DNA of 64,000 bases from Mustelus asterias. Taxonomy: Eukaryota. This document shows positions 15,410 to 48,441 of the stretch, piece by piece. The notes below the pieces were generated by a model. The model saw only the letters and a program-made list of their open reading frames with translations. It made no database searches and was not told the origin of the DNA. The stretch lies in NCBI RefSeq assembly GCF_964213995.1, contig NC_135802.1, forward strand, positions 47,430,001 to 47,494,000. Direction: 5' to 3'. The position numbers and the translations under genes are program-made. Positions within the stretch are counted from its first letter, which is position 1; each line of letters opens with the position of its first letter.

Positions 15410-17091
15410 GCTCTTTGTTCTGCAAATGTTTATTTTTTACACAAAAGCCCAATGCACATTCGGTCAATAGCTGCATCCAAATCAGGCCTCCTACAACAAA
15501 GGTAGGAAATGAGAAGAGTGGGGGAAAGTGCAGTCAATGCAGCAACAGATCTGAAATCCATTTTGTTACTTGGAAGAAAAAAATTAATCATTTGGTAGTT
15601 GAAGCAGAGAATGAACAACAGCTGATGTGCCAGAACATTTATCATTTTTTATGGTGTCGAAACAGGAAGGAAAAGGAGTAACCTATTTCAGGCAAAGTGA
15701 CTGGAAGTATGTAGGCATGTGGATGTGCATATATGTGGGTGGGTGTGTGTGTGTGTGTATGTATGTGCATCTCTTCATTACATAACAGAAGCAATGGAAC
15801 ATTGTTCCTGTTCATAAAATGGCCTTCCTATGTGTTAAGTTAACATGTACAGCCATCATTTGTACAGTTAAATAAATAACTCCATTAAACAGTGCAACAA
15901 GATCACCTACCGTCAATATCTACAAAGGCAATTATGAATTATATATATATATATATATACATACAAGTGCTTACAAACTGGATTTTGAAAATAAATTCCA
16001 CAAATGTGCATATACAGTCACCAGAACTTTATCTTTATGCCCATTAAGCAATAAGACAAAGTCATTTGGGAAAGTTGGATAGTTTTTAAACAAAGGAAAA
16101 AAAGTAACAGAATCTTCAGGCAACTCCTAAACAAAAAATATCATGTAACTTACATAATATTCAATATTTGGTATATAACTTAGACTTATCAAGTAAATTG
16201 CTCACTGCCTTGTCTGTTAAAACTATTCATTTTACAAAAAACCTAAATATGTCTATATATATATTATATATTATATATTTAATTTCCCACCCCAATGACC
16301 GATGATATATGCATCTGTGTTCTGAATTTTAAAAGCTAGGGAAAAAATGAAAACTGTACTAACTACAAATTTTCCAAAATAGGCCAATTGTAGTTGGTAG
16401 GATCAAGGAGGAAATACATTATCATTTGGACTCTGAAGCAGATATAGTGGCTAAAACTATATTCCTTTTTTTTTCTCCAAATGTTGTGTACAAATAGAAT
16501 GATACTATATATACAGTACATAGTACCTGTACTTAGAAAATACTTTTCTTAATTAACTCTGACGTGTAAGGCAAGACTAAATTCCCCAATCCCACCCCAT
16601 CTACTGAAATAAGCCAGAGTGGTCGTTAAACATATAAAGATTTCTTTTAAAAACAAAAGTTACACATGCAGAAATGAAAGTTTTTTTGAGGAAAGAAAGG
16701 TAAACCATAGTATAAGCTGATCCGACCTTTCCTGAATACCCAGGAATTTTTGTTTTTTCTCCCTCCTACACATATGTTGCTCAAGAACATTAACAGTAGT
16801 TTGATAGTAAACAGTTATTGTTCAGCCAATAGCAGTGAAAACCAAACCAAAAACACTTAAGAGCACAGTACCACACTAGCAGATCTGTAATTGTACCAGG
16901 TTTTAAAATGAATCATATTTGAATCTATTTCCGTGCTGCCTCAGCAGCCTCTGTGTGAAATCTCAAGTTTACAATAACCTTTACAGACGGATCAGGTAAA
17001 TATATACTTTTTCTTTTACACACATAAACTAAAGGGGACACGGGGGATGGAGGGGAAGTGGGGGGGGGGGGGGGGAGCCGTGTAGGCAGAG
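15410..17091 (-). other. CACNB2: Probable CACNB2 3' UTR
   Basis: AT-rich stretch with no recognisable TE downstream of the stop; AATAAA on - at 15429-15434; contains (GT)n near 15725-15768 and (TA)n near 15940-15960. Confidence 0.5.
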
Positions 17092-17589
17092 TTATTGGCG
17101 GATGTACACATCCTGGTTCCACTCGCCGACATCATTCCTTTTTTTAGACGCGACATCCCCATCTTTTTCACAATATCGATCCTTCGATTTATGCCGACTG
17201 CGCTGCTTATTGCGTTCATTGTGATCCTGTTCTCGGTCTCGTTCCTTGGAACGGTGCTGTGACTCTCTGTGCCTGTGGGTGCCATCACCTTGGGATTCCT
17301 CCATATGATTGTGGGCCTGGTGTGAGCTATAATGATCGCCAGGACTATCCGTATAATCATCCTTTGGTTCAATGTACACAGACTCCCTGCTGCCTTTGAC
17401 ATCAGAGTCAAACGTTTCCTGTCTCTCCAGGCTTCGGCCTGCAGTGCTCCGGTGATTGTGATGCTTTGCAGAGGAAGAAGTTCGATGGTGGGACTTTTTC
17501 GCTGGCTCCGGTGGCTTCTCTTCCTCCTGGGAAGCAGTTCTCTCAGGTCCTGAATGGGGCGGTTTCTGCTCTCCCTGTTTTTGTTCACC
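17092..17589 (-). CDS. CACNB2: CACNB2 exon 14 (terminal)
   Basis: GEQKQGEQ...RQETFDSD...[40 protein letters not shown]...[11 protein letters not shown], the diagnostic beta2 C-terminus; ag acceptor at 17590-17591; 498 bp. Confidence 0.95.
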
Positions 17590-18355
17590 CTGGTTAGTAC
17601 CACACCATGCAACAATCCAGTTAGTAGAATTTCACAATTCATGAAATACTTCCTTAGTCTGATTAATTTACCAAGCTGAAGAGGCATGCACTACACACAA
17701 CCAAGCTTTCACTTAAATGTAATAAAAGTTAATGCCTGCTTTTACTAACATTTACAAGATAATAAGCATTTTCACTTGGTTGCTGAAACAAAGCAATTAC
17801 TGTCAAGGCATCTTCAAGTAAAACAACTCAAATGTTAACTTAATATTCTGAAACGAATAGTGAAAATTGTTAAAGTAAATCAGAAGTAATGGTCTTGAGG
17901 GGTACTATTCAACACGAGCTTAATTCTACACCCTTTTTTCAAACGTAGACATACTGAACCCATATTAGCTCAATGGTTATGAATGCTTTTTAAATAAGCA
18001 TGCAGCCTCCAAAATACAAGCTTATGATTGATCACATTGGGGTCAAGGGTACAGACTAATGGAATTATGCTTAAACCACTCAGTACTCCTTTGTTAGTTT
18101 TACTTTGATTCATCACAACTACCACAACCAGGGTTAAATGATTTTCTCATGCCAAGCTGTTGCCCATCAGGAGATGCAGGCAAAAGTAACACCATTTTTC
18201 AAGGACGCCACGTTTAGATTCTACCCTGAAGCTGGAAGGTAATTAAATGTCTCCATTTCCAGTGCAGTGTGATTGTCACCGATCTTTTTGCTTTTTCCAT
18301 CTTTGTCTGTAGCCCAAAAATGAAGGTTAGGTTGGAGAGAAGCAAGAACTTGTAC

Positions 18356-18541
18356 CTGGAGATTGGAGACTGGTGCCGGGCTTGTAGGAAGAGCTGCACT
18401 GGCCATTGTACGACTGAGGAGAGGATTGGGAGGGTTGCTGCTCGGAGGGTGGGTAGCTCTCCAGTAAGCTTCCAGGTAATCAGACAAGTGCTCACAGGCA
18501 TCTTCCAGCTGATTTTCATCAAGAATTACATCGAACAATTC
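18356..18541 (-). CDS. CACNB2: CACNB2 exon 13
   Basis: [33 protein letters not shown]...SPAPVSNLQ; 186 bp, ag/gt flanked. Confidence 0.96.
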
Positions 18542-19165
18542 CTACAAAAATGGTAGAAGCTTTTAAGTTTTTTTTCCAACAAGAAAACATTTGAATTCAC
18601 GTGTTTTGTTGAGACAAAAATATTTTGGGTGCTATTTTCCGCCTGCGCTCACTCCAAGACCGGAAAATCTCACCCTAGGTCAATGGACCGTTGCACAATC
18701 CGTGTCTCATCTGCTATGATTCCCGTGGCGGGCGGGAGGGAAAATTCCCCTCCCCTTATCTTCAATTGTTTGATGTACTTGGTACATTATAAAGTACTGC
18801 TACTAATATTATTTTGTGACAAGTCTGTGTGTTCATTTCAAATGCCTCTGTTGCGTTAGTACAAGATAAATCCATTTTAAATCGATTTGCACCTTTGTTG
18901 ATACAAGTCATTTCTACCTTAGTAACTGACATAACCCATCCCTGGTATCAAATCGTACTTTAATAAGAAATAATATATTGAGCTCCAATGAGGGGCACTG
19001 GAATGAAAGCTGTTGTAATAGACTTTAAATGTTTGTAATTAATAATTTATTGCATTCCATTTTCTGTGAGGAAAAGGTAAAAAGAATTTGTAAATTCCTC
19101 TGTGCTTCCTCACCCTTCTAATTGTGAACCTTTCCCTTCTTCACTTTGTTCTTCCACACATACAA

Positions 19166-19440
19166 ATACCGCACGCAGACGCAAACGCCGCACGCAGATG
19201 CAAACGCCGCACGCAGACACGGATACCGCACGCTGACACGGATACCGCACGCTGACACGGATACCGCACGCTGACACGGATACCGCACGCTGACACACAT
19301 ACCGCATGCAGACACACATACCGCACGCAGACACGGATACCGCACGCAGACACGGATACCGCACGCAGACACGGATACCGCACGCAGACACGGATACCGC
19401 ACGCAGACACGGATACCGCACGCAGACACGGATACCGCAC
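19166..19440. repeat. CpG-rich 19-bp minisatellite (gcagacacggataccgcac), ~14 copies
   Basis: Tandem units are directly visible, and overlapping ORFs repeat every 19 aa (three units). Confidence 0.95.
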
Positions 19441-21381: not shown

Positions 21382-23365
21382 CAAAGAACAAAGAACAATA
21401 CAGCACAGGAACAGGCCCTTCGGCCCTCCAAGCCCACGCCACTCCCTGGTCCAAACTAGACCATTCTTTTGTATCCCTCCATTCCCACTCCGTTCATGTG
21501 GCTATCTAGATAAGTCTTAAATGTTCCCAGTGTGTCCGCCTCCACCACCTTGCCCGGCAGCGCATTCCAGGCCCCCACCACCCTTTGTGTAAAATACGTC
21601 CTTCTGATATCCGTGTTAAACCTCCCCCCCCCACCTTGAACCTATGACCCCTCGTGAACGTCACCTCCGACCTGGGGAAAAGCTTCCCACCGTTCACCCT
21701 ATCTATGCCTTTCATAATTTCATACACCTCTATTAGGTCACCCCTCATCCTCCGTCTTTCCAGTGAGAACAACGCAGTTTACCCAATCTCTCCTCATAAC
21801 TAAGCCCTTCCATACCAGGCAACATCCTGGTAAACCTCCTCTGCACTCTCTCTAAAGCCTCCACATCCTTCTGGTAGTGTGGCGACCAGAACTGGGCGCA
21901 GTATTCCAAATGCGGCTGAACCAACGTTCTATACAACTGCAACATCAGACCCCAACTTTTATACTCTATGCCCCGTCCTATAAAGGCAAGCATGCCATAT
22001 GCCTTACTCACTACCTTCTCCACCTATGACGTCACCTTCAAGGATCAGTGGACATGCACACCCAGGTCCCTCTGCGTATCTACACCCTTTATGGTTCTGC
22101 CATTTTTCGTATAGCTCCCCCCTACGTTAGTTCTACCAAAATGCATCACTTTGCATTTATCAGGATTGAACTCCATCTGCCATTTCTTTGCCCAAACTTC
22201 CAGCCTATCTATATCCTTCTGTAGCCTCTGACAATGTTCCTCATTATCTGCAAGTCCAGCCATTTTCGTGTCGTCCGCAAACTTACTGATCACCCCAGTT
22301 ACACCTTCTTCCAGATCATTTATATAAATCACAAACAGCAGAGGTCCCAATACAGAGCCCTGCGGAACACCACTAGTCACAGGCATCCAGCCGGAAAAAG
22401 ACCCTTCCACTACCACCCTCTGTCTCCTGTGACCAAGCCAGTTCTCCACCCATCTAGCCACCTCCCCCTTTATCCCATGAGATCCAACCTTTTGCACCAA
22501 CCTACCATGAGGGACTTTGTCAAACGCTTTACTAAAGTCCATATAGACGACGGCCACGGCCCTTCCCTCATCAACCATTCTAGTCACTTCTTCAAAAAAC
22601 TCCACCAGGTTAGTGAGGCATGACCTCCCTCTCACAAAACCATGCTGACTATCGTTAATGAGTTTATGCCTTTCTAAATGCGCATACATCCTATCTCTAA
22701 GAATCCTCTCCAACAACTTCCCTACCACGGACGTCAAGCTCACCGGCCTATAATTTCCCGGGTTATCCTTCCTACCCTTCTTAAATAACGGGACCACATT
22801 AGCTATCCTCCAATCCTCTGGGACCTCACCTGTGTCCAGTGACGAGACAAAGATTTGCGTCAGAGGCCCAGCGATTTCATCTCTCGTCTCCCTGAGAAGC
22901 CTTGGATAGATTCCATCAGGCCCTGGGGATTTGTCAGTCTTTATATTCCCTAAAAAACCTAACACTTACTTCCTTGTAATGGAGATTTTCTCTGACGGGT
23001 CAACACTCCCCTCCGAGACACTCCCAGTCAACACATCCCTCTCCTTTGTGAATACCGACGCAAAGTATTCATTTAGGATCTCCCCTACTTCTTTGGGCTC
23101 TTAGCATAATTCCCCACTTTTGTCCCTGAGAGGTCCGATTTTTTCCCTGACAACCCTTTTGTCCCTAATGTATGAATAAAATGCCTTGGGATTCTCCTTA
23201 ATCCTGTCTGCAAAGGACATTTCGTGACCCCTTTTTGCCCTTCTAATTCCTCGTTTGAGTTGTTTCCTACTTTCTTTGTATTCCTCCAGAGCTCCCTTCG
23301 TTTTTAGCTGCCTGGACCTAACGTACGCCACTCTTTTCTTTTTGACCAATCCCTCAATTTCCCTG
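21382..23365 (-). mobile_element. 5'-truncated CR1 LINE with disrupted RT
   Basis: ORFs 22045-22965, 21745-22023, 21506-21772 and 23101-23379 carry CR1 RT motifs (DFSKAFDKVPH, GVPQGSVLGP, FADD); (ttctttg)n tail; possible tggca TSD. Confidence 0.95.
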
Positions 23366-25037
23366 GCATCTGATTGCATACACTATTTAGATTTTTTTTT
23401 CCTGTACCCTGTGCCATGACCTGCTGGAATTGCAAACTGGGTAAAAATGTGGCAAAGGCAATTGGGCATCTGTGAAGAACGGTGAGACTAAGTTTCCTTA
23501 ATGAGATTTCCAATTTAAGAAAGAACAAAGAAACAGAAAGGATGGAGAGAGTGAACTAGAGTCAAATCAGCTAGAGAGATACAGAAAAAAAAATTGGTTG
23601 AGAGAAAGAAGAGAATGGAAAAATAGTTTAAAAAAACATTTTTTTCAATTTTGAACAACAAATTTATTTCATGCAAGGTTGAGATTGATCACTTCAAATT
23701 GTTCCTTTCTGAGTCAGAGATTGATTGGCATTCTATTCATAATCATGTAATTAAAATGGTGCTTATGCTTTTAATTGCCAGATATAAATCTCTGCAGGGA
23801 GTTTAATATGCAATTAAATGCAAATCCAACAAGTTTGTTTTTTAAGAATAATGGGGAGGCTAACGGAGAGATGCTCTTTGTGTGAAGCAAGCAACAAAGT
23901 GACAGGAATCAAAATTCTGGAGCTTTCCATCTGTTAATCTCTTGAATTTAGGACCAATCTACACATTAGTAATGGCGTGCTGTTATTTTTCCAGCAACAG
24001 CTAGCCCATTAAATGTCATATGTCATGTCCAATGCTGATTGACTTCTTGTCCATTCACTGCAGTAATTTGTATCCAAGACTTCCAGCAACTTTAACGAAC
24101 AAATACACCCTTGCCTTGCACTATCATCCCTTTTGTCATTTAAGCTCTCCTGTCTTGCACCCTACCACAGACCTTCTCTTTTGTTCTCTCCTGTCCCTTC
24201 TCTCCCTCCGTATCTGCAGAAATCCTGCACAACATTATCGACCTGAAATGCTGGCTGGAATTTTATGGTCCCTTTGGGGATTGACTGGGAGGTGATACAG
24301 TTGGCAAAATGGCGTGGGAAGTGGTTGGGATGGATGCTTGACATCTTCTCTCTGCCATGCCTTTTGCCAGTGGCAGCAAAGTTGGCAGATCGGCTGCCCA
24401 CCTGGAGACCAACTGAGCTATTTAAATGCCACAATTAATGGCCATTTCTCAACTCCATGGGCATCTTGCCAGAGACCACCCAGTGAAACTTGACAACCTC
24501 CAGAGTAAAAGAGCCCTCCTTTTTGATCACTCCATGCACCCCCACCCCTTCAGCAAAAGCAACCCCGTAGTAACAGCGTCACCGGTGCACGGCAACTATC
24601 CCCTCCCCATTCCCCCTGTCTGATCACTGCCTCCCCAGCAACCCCAACCCCACCTATCCTGCTCTAAAACACTACACTGCTGAGACACCCTCTCCCTTGT
24701 TTCAGCAATGGCCACCATTGGCAATGCCACTGCTTAGATTGAAGTGCTGGCCCTCCCATTGGGCCACCTTCATTAATTGGATGGTGGTCACTTAATCGGC
24801 CATGGCTGGCAAAATGCAGCCCCCAAGTCCTGCCATCCACTGAAGAAGGGTCATGTCCCGGCAGAACATCTACCCTCATGAGAAGATTCATCTGTCTGCT
24901 TCTCTCTCCCCAGATATTGCCAGAGCTGCTGAATCATTCCAGCAGTTTCTATTTCCTGCACAGCATGCTCATGCTCAAGAAGTGATGTTAAGCGGTTGAT
25001 TTAATTGGTTTTCAAGAATTAAATACGATAACTTTTA

Positions 25038-25184
<147 letters not shown>

Positions 25185-25335
25185 CTACATGCATGGCAAA
25201 ATGGGAAGATTAGGAAGTTAGTATGCAGAAAATAGTCAAGTGCCTATCCGAACTGATATAAAGATTGATCTATTACAGTAGATCGGCATATATAAAATAG
25301 TCTCTTGGTAGTGCAGAACTTAAAATAGAGACATG

Positions 25336-25807: not shown

Positions 25808-26814
25808 GGGTCCTATTTTACCATTTTGATTCCAAGTGCTCGGCGGACTTTAAACTGAGAGTGTTTCAGATCCGACTTTTACCCCTGTTCTGAGGCGCCC
25901 TCATACGCATTCTGCCTGAAAAAATATCAGCAATTCCGAATCGCGCTGCATAAGCCTGTGGGTGGGGCTTAACGTGCCCAAAATCCTGCAGTTCTGATCG
26001 GTACCTCCAACTGCGCATGCCCAAAAAAAAAATGATAGAATGCCGCTCCCTGCCACATCTCTCCTGGGCCAGATAATGCCTCCCCCTGGCCCTCACAGAC
26101 ATTGCCCCACACCCACAACATTACTGACCCCTTTATCCCCCCCACCACCCAGACTAATCAGGGGGCCCCTCCCCCACCTTCCCCCCGCCCCACCCCCCCC
26201 CCCCCCCCGCCAATCTCAGACAGAGTGGCAGCGGAGCCCCTTTCACCCCCACTGATTTCAAGCAAAGTGGCAGCGGATTCCCTTTCACCCCCACTGATCA
26301 CAGGCAGAGTGGCAGCGGACACCCTTTAACCCCCATTAATCACAGGCAGAGTGGCAGCAGACCCCCTTTCACCCCCAATGATCTCAAGCAGAGTGGCAGG
26401 GGCCCTTCCCTCTCCCCCACCCCCCTCCCCCCTGCCCGACTGATCTCGAGCAGGGAGCCGTCGGATGCTTGGTACTTACCTCCTCACTAACCCTCACTGA
26501 TGGAGTGCCCAAATTGGATATATATGGAGCATGTCTGTTTCGTGCCGATTTCGGATGAGCAAACGCGGTGGTAAAGGGGGAAGTGTCGGTAAAGTTGGGC
26601 GTGTAGCCCATTAAGTCAATTTAAATGCATGCAAATGCATTTAAATAGCTGTCGCGCCCGTTTTGGATGCAGTCCTGATTGCATCCATTTTCGGGCCTTG
26701 GTAAAGGGGGAACTGCCACGGAGACAGGCGCGGATCGCGTTACTCTCCTCACACCCGACTTTACCAAGCTTCCGCGCCCAAAAATGGGCACAACGCAATG
26801 GTAAAATCGGGCCC
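25808..26814. mobile_element. Harbinger-type MITE with an internal ~39-bp tandem repeat (~5 copies, 26210-26400)
   Basis: TIRs gggtcctattttaccatt / aatggtaaaatcgggccc; TSD aat on both sides; internal unit cagagtggcagcgga-cccctttcacccccactgat. Confidence 0.85.
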
Positions 26815-46776: not shown

Positions 46777-48134
46777 ATTTCATCTTTCTTGATAGGACAA
46801 CCCTCTCATCCCAGGAATTAGCCTGGTGAATCTCCTTTGGATTGCCTCCAATGTTACTTTATCCTTTTTTAGGTAAGGGGACCAAATCTGTATGCAACTG
46901 AACTGTAATTCATGCCCAGGATGCCATTGAATAAATAAGGACTCCCAAGGTAAAATTATTTAGGCAAATTTAATTTAGGTAAGAAGAAAGTCTTTTTATT
47001 GTTAATGATGTCTGCCAAGACCCTAAGTTTAGTTAACCTTGCTCGTGGACTTAGATTAGCACCTCTAATTATTATAAATATAAGTATACAAATTCAATGC
47101 ACCAGTCATGACTTTTCATCTTGAAAAGATCAATGCGAAACAGAAAGCATCTCAAAATAAAATGGCTAGTGGTTTGATTTTCATGAACATTTGTTTGTCA
47201 ATCCCAGTGCAGACACGATAGGCCAAACAGCCTCCTTCTATGCTGTTGATTTGATTAGAAATATAACTAGCTATTACTTAAATATGGATAAAATGCAACA
47301 GAATACATTACAAACTAACGATTACAAATATATCCAGTTTAATTATACCAGCATATATTTATTATCAGATGTAACGTCACATCAAAAGCAAACATGGGCA
47401 CTAGGGATAGACTGCGTAATTAAGCAAGTTGCTTTCAAGGGAAACAGAGACAATAGCACCAAATGGTCTTTGTCCAAAGCATTCACACATCGCTTCTTAT
47501 CATTTCCCAATAAGACTTTTTTCCCCTGGGCAGCACATTTTCTCCCATTTATTTCAGATTTATAGTATGTTTTTCTTTTCAGCCACACTCTCATTTTCTG
47601 TGTTAAATTTATTTCCGAATAGTTACAAAATACCCAAATGTAAGTTACCAAGAAACCAGTAACCAGCACATGACTCAATTTTCAGATCGTATCTTAAAGT
47701 AACAAAACATGCCAAACATCAAAGCAGAAAACACAAAGCATCAATACGACTGAACTTAACACACAAAGATCAAAGCACAGTAACAACAGCCATAAAGATT
47801 TTTTTTCTCTCTGTTTCACCTAAACTAATGCACAGGACAATCTAATACAATACTGACAGTCCTGTTGTCCAGTTGCTAGGTAGCAGGGAATGTCCCAGTG
47901 GCATAATTAGCATGATTCTCAAAAGTTTATGCACATAGCTAGCTCTCTGATGAGTCTCTTGTGCATGCTTTAGAACCAATCAAAATCTGAATCTCTGCAA
48001 ATCATGTGTTGCAATTATGTGGTCCTAGTGTTCACTCATTTTTCAAGAAAGAAACTTGTTCATGCTGATCGAGCTTAAGATTTCAATGCTAATTATGCAA
48101 TGGGCAGGACCGACATGTAACAATATTGACTTAC

Positions 48135-48154
48135 CGATTTCTGCTTCTGTTTAG
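48135..48154 (-). CDS. CACNB2: CACNB2 alternative micro-exon 7B (AKQKQKS)
   Basis: tatag|CTAAACAGAAGCAGAAATCG|gtaagt; 20 bp. Confidence 0.93.
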
Positions 48155-48307
48155 CTATAGAAACATTGAAGAAAAAAACAAGAATAACAGGGCATGCATA
48201 TTATTGACTTTTCACAGGACACATACAAATACAAGACATACTGCTGGTTATGTGACATACTGCTGGTTAGCACGTGCGACAGACTGCAGTTTAGGAAGTA
48301 TGGTTAC

Positions 48308-48441
48308 CTTCTTAAAGAAGGGCATTCTTTTCTCTTTAGACTGGGGAGACGTTAGACTGTTTACACTGGCTATAGGGGAGCGGTGATTTGCCGGGGGATC
48401 ATTGTCTTCTGCATCTAAGCCACTGGCATCTAAATCAAAAG
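48308..48441 (-). CDS. CACNB2: CACNB2 alternative exon 7A (long HOOK)
   Basis: [45 protein letters not shown]; 134 bp. Confidence 0.95.

Follow-up and report, generated by a model that had tools for sequence, protein, structure and literature searches.

A retained last intron in shark CACNB2 probably encodes a β1a-like, muscle-type C-terminus of ancient origin

In a 64,000-nucleotide stretch of the Mustelus asterias genome (the window), the calcium-channel β2 gene CACNB2 produces a transcript that retains its last intron, intron 13, and both this form and the conventionally spliced one are found in a single sequencing run. Retention of the intron would swap the 165-residue end encoded by exon 14 for a tail of 44 residues. 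We consider it probable that this tail is the muscle-type C-terminus that chordate calcium-channel β subunits had ancestrally, and that repressing the exon-14 acceptor would switch it on in muscle.

The gene is shark CACNB2, as its core domain, its exon 14 and its neighbour NSUN6 all show, and the original prediction was right to call it clearly β2. In a core-domain tree of 22 rows, hand-picked among the fetched proteins, it groups with elasmobranch β2 (support 95) and the C11 copy of the same genome falls in the β1 clade (support 96); the deep order of β2 versus β3/β4 is poorly supported (9–27). Two hagfish sequences in this tree (P0268 and P0312), labelled β2-like but with a last exon that starts like that of β1 (HLVHGE), lie outside both the β1 and β2 clades with weak support. 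Exon 14 is identical to catshark β2 at 152 of 165 residues and to human β2 at 108 of 162, compared with 42–54 identical residues of 125–160 for β1 proteins (43 of 125 for a rodent β1). Methyltransferase exons, whose best PDB match is NSUN6 (E 5.5e-18), precede the window by 6 and 18 kb on the plus strand; NSUN6 lying tail-to-tail with CACNB2 is what we take to be the mammalian arrangement. The genome holds four CACNB loci, with β1 and β2 on different contigs. Past exon 13, the C11 copy reads into a canonical 35-residue β1a tail. C14, which we take to be β4-like from its exon-13 end, meets a stop after a single codon, and C4860, presumably β3-like, has no β1a-type motif.

CACNB2 is encoded on the minus strand. 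Exon 13 (18356–18541) carries the end of the GK domain and the proximal C-terminus, and is joined in the contigs, including that of the retained transcript, to exon 12 (25089–25184). Its donor, CAG/GTACAA (18350–18358), also codes for Gln-Val-Gln and has CAG/GTACAG as its β1 counterpart. Translation past exon 13 gave an open frame of 44 codons (18355–18224) closed by a TAG at 18223–18221, identical to the one originally described, so that the coding extension occupies 18221–18355. Intron 13 (17590–18355, 766 nt) is kept whole in the read-through transcript and contains neither AATAAA nor ATTAAA, so the intron is retained in full and the two forms share one 3′ end. Exon 14 begins at 17589, and its junction with exon 13 was observed in run X1; its coding part (17092–17589, 165 residues), the canonical β2 C-terminus, is 3′ UTR in the retained form. 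Positions 16283 and 15434 of the shared 3′ UTR (15434–17091) mark candidate poly(A) signals, and contigs reach 15600, the edge of the stretch used for this comparison. At 15806, in this UTR, X21 and X23 carry an insertion of 16 letters relative to the window, an allele or an assembly difference.

The first part of the tail is homologous to β1a, its residues 1–14 corresponding to V490–W503, and 10 of these 14 are identical to the read-through of the same genome's β1. Residues 3–14 score 41 against that β1 tail (8/12 identities), a score reached by none of 200,000 random 12-codon windows (best 27); thus, the similarity is not due to chance, while the 44-codon open frame by itself is weak evidence (chance about 0.10). 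Rabbit β1a (PDB 6jpa_C, residues 428–504) aligns across the exon boundary through V490–G504, and the alignments of the long β1 form (7vfs_D) and β2c (8hlp_C) end at the last exon-13 residue. The likeness to the β1a read-through, claimed in the original prediction, is therefore borne out by both the 14-residue match and the rabbit alignment, and the similarity between β1 and β2 stops after codon 14. The residues kept are V490–L493, S495, L496, N499, L500, F502, and W503, so that the hydrophobic face (L496, L500, W503) is present in full. Seven of the first ten residues are those of β1a, with A, Q, and P at 494, 497, and 498: T494A changes a residue found in 118/118 β1a-type tails, R497Q a position that is Arg or Lys in 118/118, and R498P one that is Arg in 114/118. 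The shark β2 tail is also longer (44 versus 34–35 residues) with a conserved end of its own, and lacks the E-H-A-type end of the approximately 35-residue β1a tail; it falls outside the strict β1a type, though its origin and mode of production are shared. Helical hydrophobic moments gave no useful separation of the tails, and AlphaFold2 gave no usable model of the 486-residue sawshark isoform (42 sequences; mean pLDDT 40, below 50 over the tail).

The distal C-terminus of β1a/β1D (rabbit V490–M524; PDB 6jpa_C; PMC9171810) arises, like the shark β2 tail, by in-frame read-through of the exon-13 donor. The two differ in how the transcript ends: the whole 766-nt intron is retained in shark β2, whereas intron 13 of shark β1 is 11,058 nt long and its read-through likely ends by intronic polyadenylation. 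Canonical β2 (human 660-residue form, PDB 8hlp_C) comes from the same gene as the tail, and the exon-14 form is also made in the shark (X1).

The same 44-residue tail and stop occur in a sawshark, an electric ray (XP_069770764.1) and a thorny skate (XP_032871219.1), all three being automatic isoform predictions, and in a contig of 2,983 nt. Across the five elasmobranch sequences, the window included, there is no indel, and the invariant columns number 14/14, then 1/12, then 12/18. The original prediction had named early stops or frameshifts in other sharks and rays as evidence against it; none was found, with 44 codons and the same stop in 5/5 sequences. All four tail-bearing database sequences contain exon 7A, the long HOOK exon (48307–48441, minus strand), and three of them begin with a short first exon and total 486 residues, much like the short β1 forms (477–483). 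A search of the 40 kb upstream did not reveal the first exon of the 486-residue form. The short HOOK exon, 7B, follows exon 7A at a distance of about 150 nt (48120–48170, minus strand), so both HOOK forms are encoded. One stingray model from the same cluster (P0005, XP_059828135.1) continues past exon 13 with a third ending, 11 residues long and unlike both the tail and exon 14; it could represent a further last exon or an artefact of prediction.

Among the best 120 of 5,203 matches it appears in three, two elasmobranch representatives and bowfin β2 (MBN3307356.1, a gene model and not a transcript), where it is worn and reads VQVLTKLRSNVGF; the remaining 117 use exon 14 and carry little information on their introns. 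In fragments that read past exon 13, classed by reading their exon-13 sequence and including no chimaera or cyclostome intron, the motif was found in 0/11 of tetrapod-type β2 and 0/6 of β4-type, and a partial motif in 5/15 of ray-finned-type β2. Three ray-finned-type β2 sequences (P0274, P0277, P0287) read LH-LQVLTK(L/E), with a donor position that no longer codes for Val; in one teleost β2 copy the tail may have become the fixed ending. In zebrafish, 3′ RACE gave one C-terminal variant per β2 gene, so that, unlike in shark β2, no C-terminal alternative was found there, as far as the available part of PMC2365960 goes. The end of exon 13 had also been described as β1-like, and it is (25/31 residues), but the feature is not specific to sharks: chimaera, coelacanth, sturgeon, and bowfin β2 share it, and tetrapod β2 has drifted away.

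Transcript evidence came from the assembled contigs of four runs (X1, X21, X22, and X23) among 24 listed; such contigs drop rare forms, and their depth cannot rank genes. Three of the four runs are not recorded as RNA, but exon 12–13 joints or cover argue for RNA, and X22 and X23 come from other organisms, judging by their codes. In X21, one contig of 4,585 nt with 1 mismatch spans 15774–18541, covering exon 13, intron 13, exon 14, and 3′ UTR, and continues at 18541 into exon 12 (placed at 25089), showing that intron 12 was removed and intron 13 kept. X22 and X23 have single contigs through the whole of intron 13 with no exon 13–14 joint listed; at 18541 the X22 contig leaves the stretch and continues for another 961 nt. 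X1 contains both forms, with a depth of 86.4 for the spliced exon 13–14 joint and 6.5 for the retained contig, and an exon 12–13 joint as well. Hence, the read-through transcripts that the original prediction proposed to look for do exist, with contigs across intron 13 in all four runs. With no junction downstream of its stop, the read-through transcript would escape NMD. Among the differences listed, 0 fall in the 101 nt of the acceptor, 18 in 530 nt of the intron middle, and 2 in the 135 nt of the tail, which is a hint only; the two in the tail, K18E and T30I, are both amino-acid changes in its distal part.

At the β1 locus, X21, X22, and X23 carry the β1 read-through, and X1 is nearly without β1 cover. 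In X21 the β1 read-through RNA can be followed into intron 13 for 2.9 kb or more (L005 1267–4200), in contigs broken by repeats. The occurrence of the β1 and β2 read-through forms in the same three runs is a hint of muscle expression, and we think it reasonably probable that the tail isoform is expressed mainly in muscle.

The exon-14 acceptor offers a candidate switch. A TACTAAC lies 10 nt before exon 14 (17593–17599), at the same position as in β1, and a second one, of the branch-site/QKI type, 37 nt before it (17620–17626). A TGCATG at −22 (17606–17611), which we take to be an RBFOX-type motif, is within an 11-nt stretch common to the β1 exon-14 acceptor, where TACTAAC is at −10 and TGCATG at −28; this stretch alone is modestly rare (41/5,000 random sites). 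The acceptor has a pyrimidine share of 0.50, the poorest of 10 acceptors examined, and the exon-13 donor is off consensus and doubles as coding sequence. Using distances chosen after seeing this acceptor (TACTAAC within 15 nt, TGCATG within 40 nt), only 1 of 4,234 AG sites on the minus strand of the window has both motifs, namely the exon-14 acceptor itself. At the exon 12 acceptor (25185–25225), ACTAAC stands at −38 and TGCATG at −9, yet exon 12 is included in the contigs and not known to be skipped, so the combination of ACTAAC and TGCATG is not sufficient. A motif search over 20 kb did not find exon 14 of shark β4.

In the sections of PMC13004596 available, QKI and SF1 are competitors for ACUAAC branch sites, repression by QKI is strong where such sites occur in tandem, and QKI levels are high in muscle and low in neurons; in QKI-null mouse heart, Cacnb1 splicing shifts to the brain form, according to part of PMC10202634. 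Exons repressed by QKI at tandem branch sites, such as RAI14 exon 11, have two ACUAAC motifs near the 3′ splice site, as shark β2 does (PMC13004596, same sections). Exon 14 differs from RAI14 exon 11 in being the last exon, so blocking it would leave the intron in the message and create a different C-terminus. We propose, at roughly even odds, that QKI, helped by RBFOX, blocks the exon-14 branch site in muscle. With exon 14 blocked, β2 would keep its short intron 13, and β1, with its 11,058-nt intron, would end inside the intron. These features suggest that the choice between β1a and β1b is set by a splice-acceptor module common to β1 and β2.

As to function, the most likely putative role is in placing or tuning L-type channels at muscle junctions, where the tail would resemble β1a in its action, though weaker or tuned differently. 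In the accessible text of PMC9171810, the distal C-terminus is exclusive to β1a and essential for tetrads, the whole protein can do without L496, L500, and W503, and the first ten tail residues, alike from fish to mammals, are the authors' candidates as active residues. Full tetrad-forming, β1a-like coupling by shark β2 appears doubtful. About as probable is a different use of an equally real and ancient isoform, in which the β2 tail has its role in heart, smooth muscle, electric organ, or sensory cells, is unconnected with skeletal-muscle junctions, and acts mainly through the loss of the exon-14 tail. Such a role would fit the three substitutions at sites conserved in β1a, one of them a proline, as well as the failure of mammalian β2a to form tetrads (PMC9171810, same text) and the presence of the motif in a tunicate (see below), although coupling in tunicate muscle relies on an influx of calcium (PMC5538450, in part). 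However, the runs in which only the retained β2 form was assembled are those that carry the β1a-type form, and 14 residues invariant from sharks to rays are more than truncation alone would need.

The retained intron might instead be unfinished or detained RNA, the conserved bases being splicing signals and the frame an untranslated relic. The weak donor and pyrimidine-poor acceptor would suit such an RNA, the first two tail codons overlap the donor, and a frame of this length is open by chance at about 0.10. We consider this very unlikely, given that the length and stop are the same in 5/5 elasmobranch sequences even though the middle 12 residues vary freely, that the β1 and β2 tails differ silently at third positions (4/9 shared degenerate codons), that the intron indels in X1, four among the rows listed, all come after the stop, and that the retained form alone was assembled in 3/4 runs (X21, X22, and X23). 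We consider it highly probable that the retained transcript is translated into protein.

The age of the tail is indicated by a tunicate. A deep search returned 69 matches, 12 of them long unrelated proteins, and its weakest match was the CaV β subunit of Halocynthia roretzi (BAF35849.1), which ends in VHVLTSLKRNLSF at the same position. This tail is identical at 12/13 residues to 3 of the 118 β1a-type tails and at 10 or more to 71 of them, and it resembles human β1a in its length of 34 residues and its acidic end; unlike the shark β2 tail, it has no tryptophan. The Halocynthia gene is an invertebrate gene outside the vertebrate paralogues, and the likeness is known from the protein. Its core is 78% identical to that of the window gene, below every full vertebrate row, which argues against contamination. 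Since the tunicate subunit has a matching tail, the simplest reading of the sequences is that the tail is likely older than all four vertebrate genes and than tetrads. The original prediction, which placed its origin before the β1/β2 duplication, is supported but understated the age. Inheritance from before the vertebrate duplications, with the tail kept in β1 and elasmobranch β2, worn in ray-finned β2, and lost from tetrapod β2 and from β3/β4, is in our judgement very probable.

Gene conversion that copied the tail from β1 into β2 is also very unlikely. It would account for the exon-13 end and the tail both being β1-like (25/31 and 10/14 residues), but the two genes are on different contigs, the same exon-13 end occurs in chimaera, coelacanth, sturgeon, and bowfin β2, and the tunicate carries the tail motif. 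Silent differences are found at 17/24 shared codons in the exon-13 end and 4/9 in the tail, compared with 15/26 in the GK part; as silent sites are as diverged in the exon-13 end and tail as in the GK part, a recent conversion is unlikely, and one earlier than the jawed-vertebrate split is possible. A transposon origin of the intron or the tail was rejected, as the intron, originally described as 766 bp with no recognisable transposable element, matched only itself in a genome search that skipped very common words.

The isoform is already present in databases as unnamed automatic predictions, and a literature search in which subscription journals were thinly covered found no description of the shark β2 isoform or of the tunicate match, with nothing on the isoform in the accessible parts of 10.1101/274449 and PMC9019481. 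The presence of the tail in shark β2 challenges its exclusivity to β1a. Which of the 35 distal β1a residues act is left open in the available text of PMC9171810, and nature provides a graded series, from the tunicate (near-identical start, influx-dependent muscle) through shark β2 (three substitutions, invariant across sharks and rays) to bowfin β2 (worn), that could map the residues needed and reveal whether an older part was taken over for skeletal coupling in vertebrates. More speculatively, the β1a tail could be a chordate muscle module, a peptide together with a QKI/RBFOX last-exon switch, that is older than tetrads; sharks and rays would then run two tail-bearing β subunits together in muscle, and the β2 form would couple CaV1.1 to RyR1, an ability lost in tetrapod β2.

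The introns around exon 13 also contain repeats. A short element just upstream of exon 13 (18634–18755) is matched by many unrelated contigs, and intron 12 holds a tandem array of 14.5 copies of 19 nt (19166–19440) and broken reverse-transcriptase frames on the minus strand (21748–23382), presumably from a LINE-type element. In intron 11 there is a second tandem array, of about 4.5 copies of 42 nt (26221–26420), and a stretch resembling it apparently lies near exon 13 of β4.
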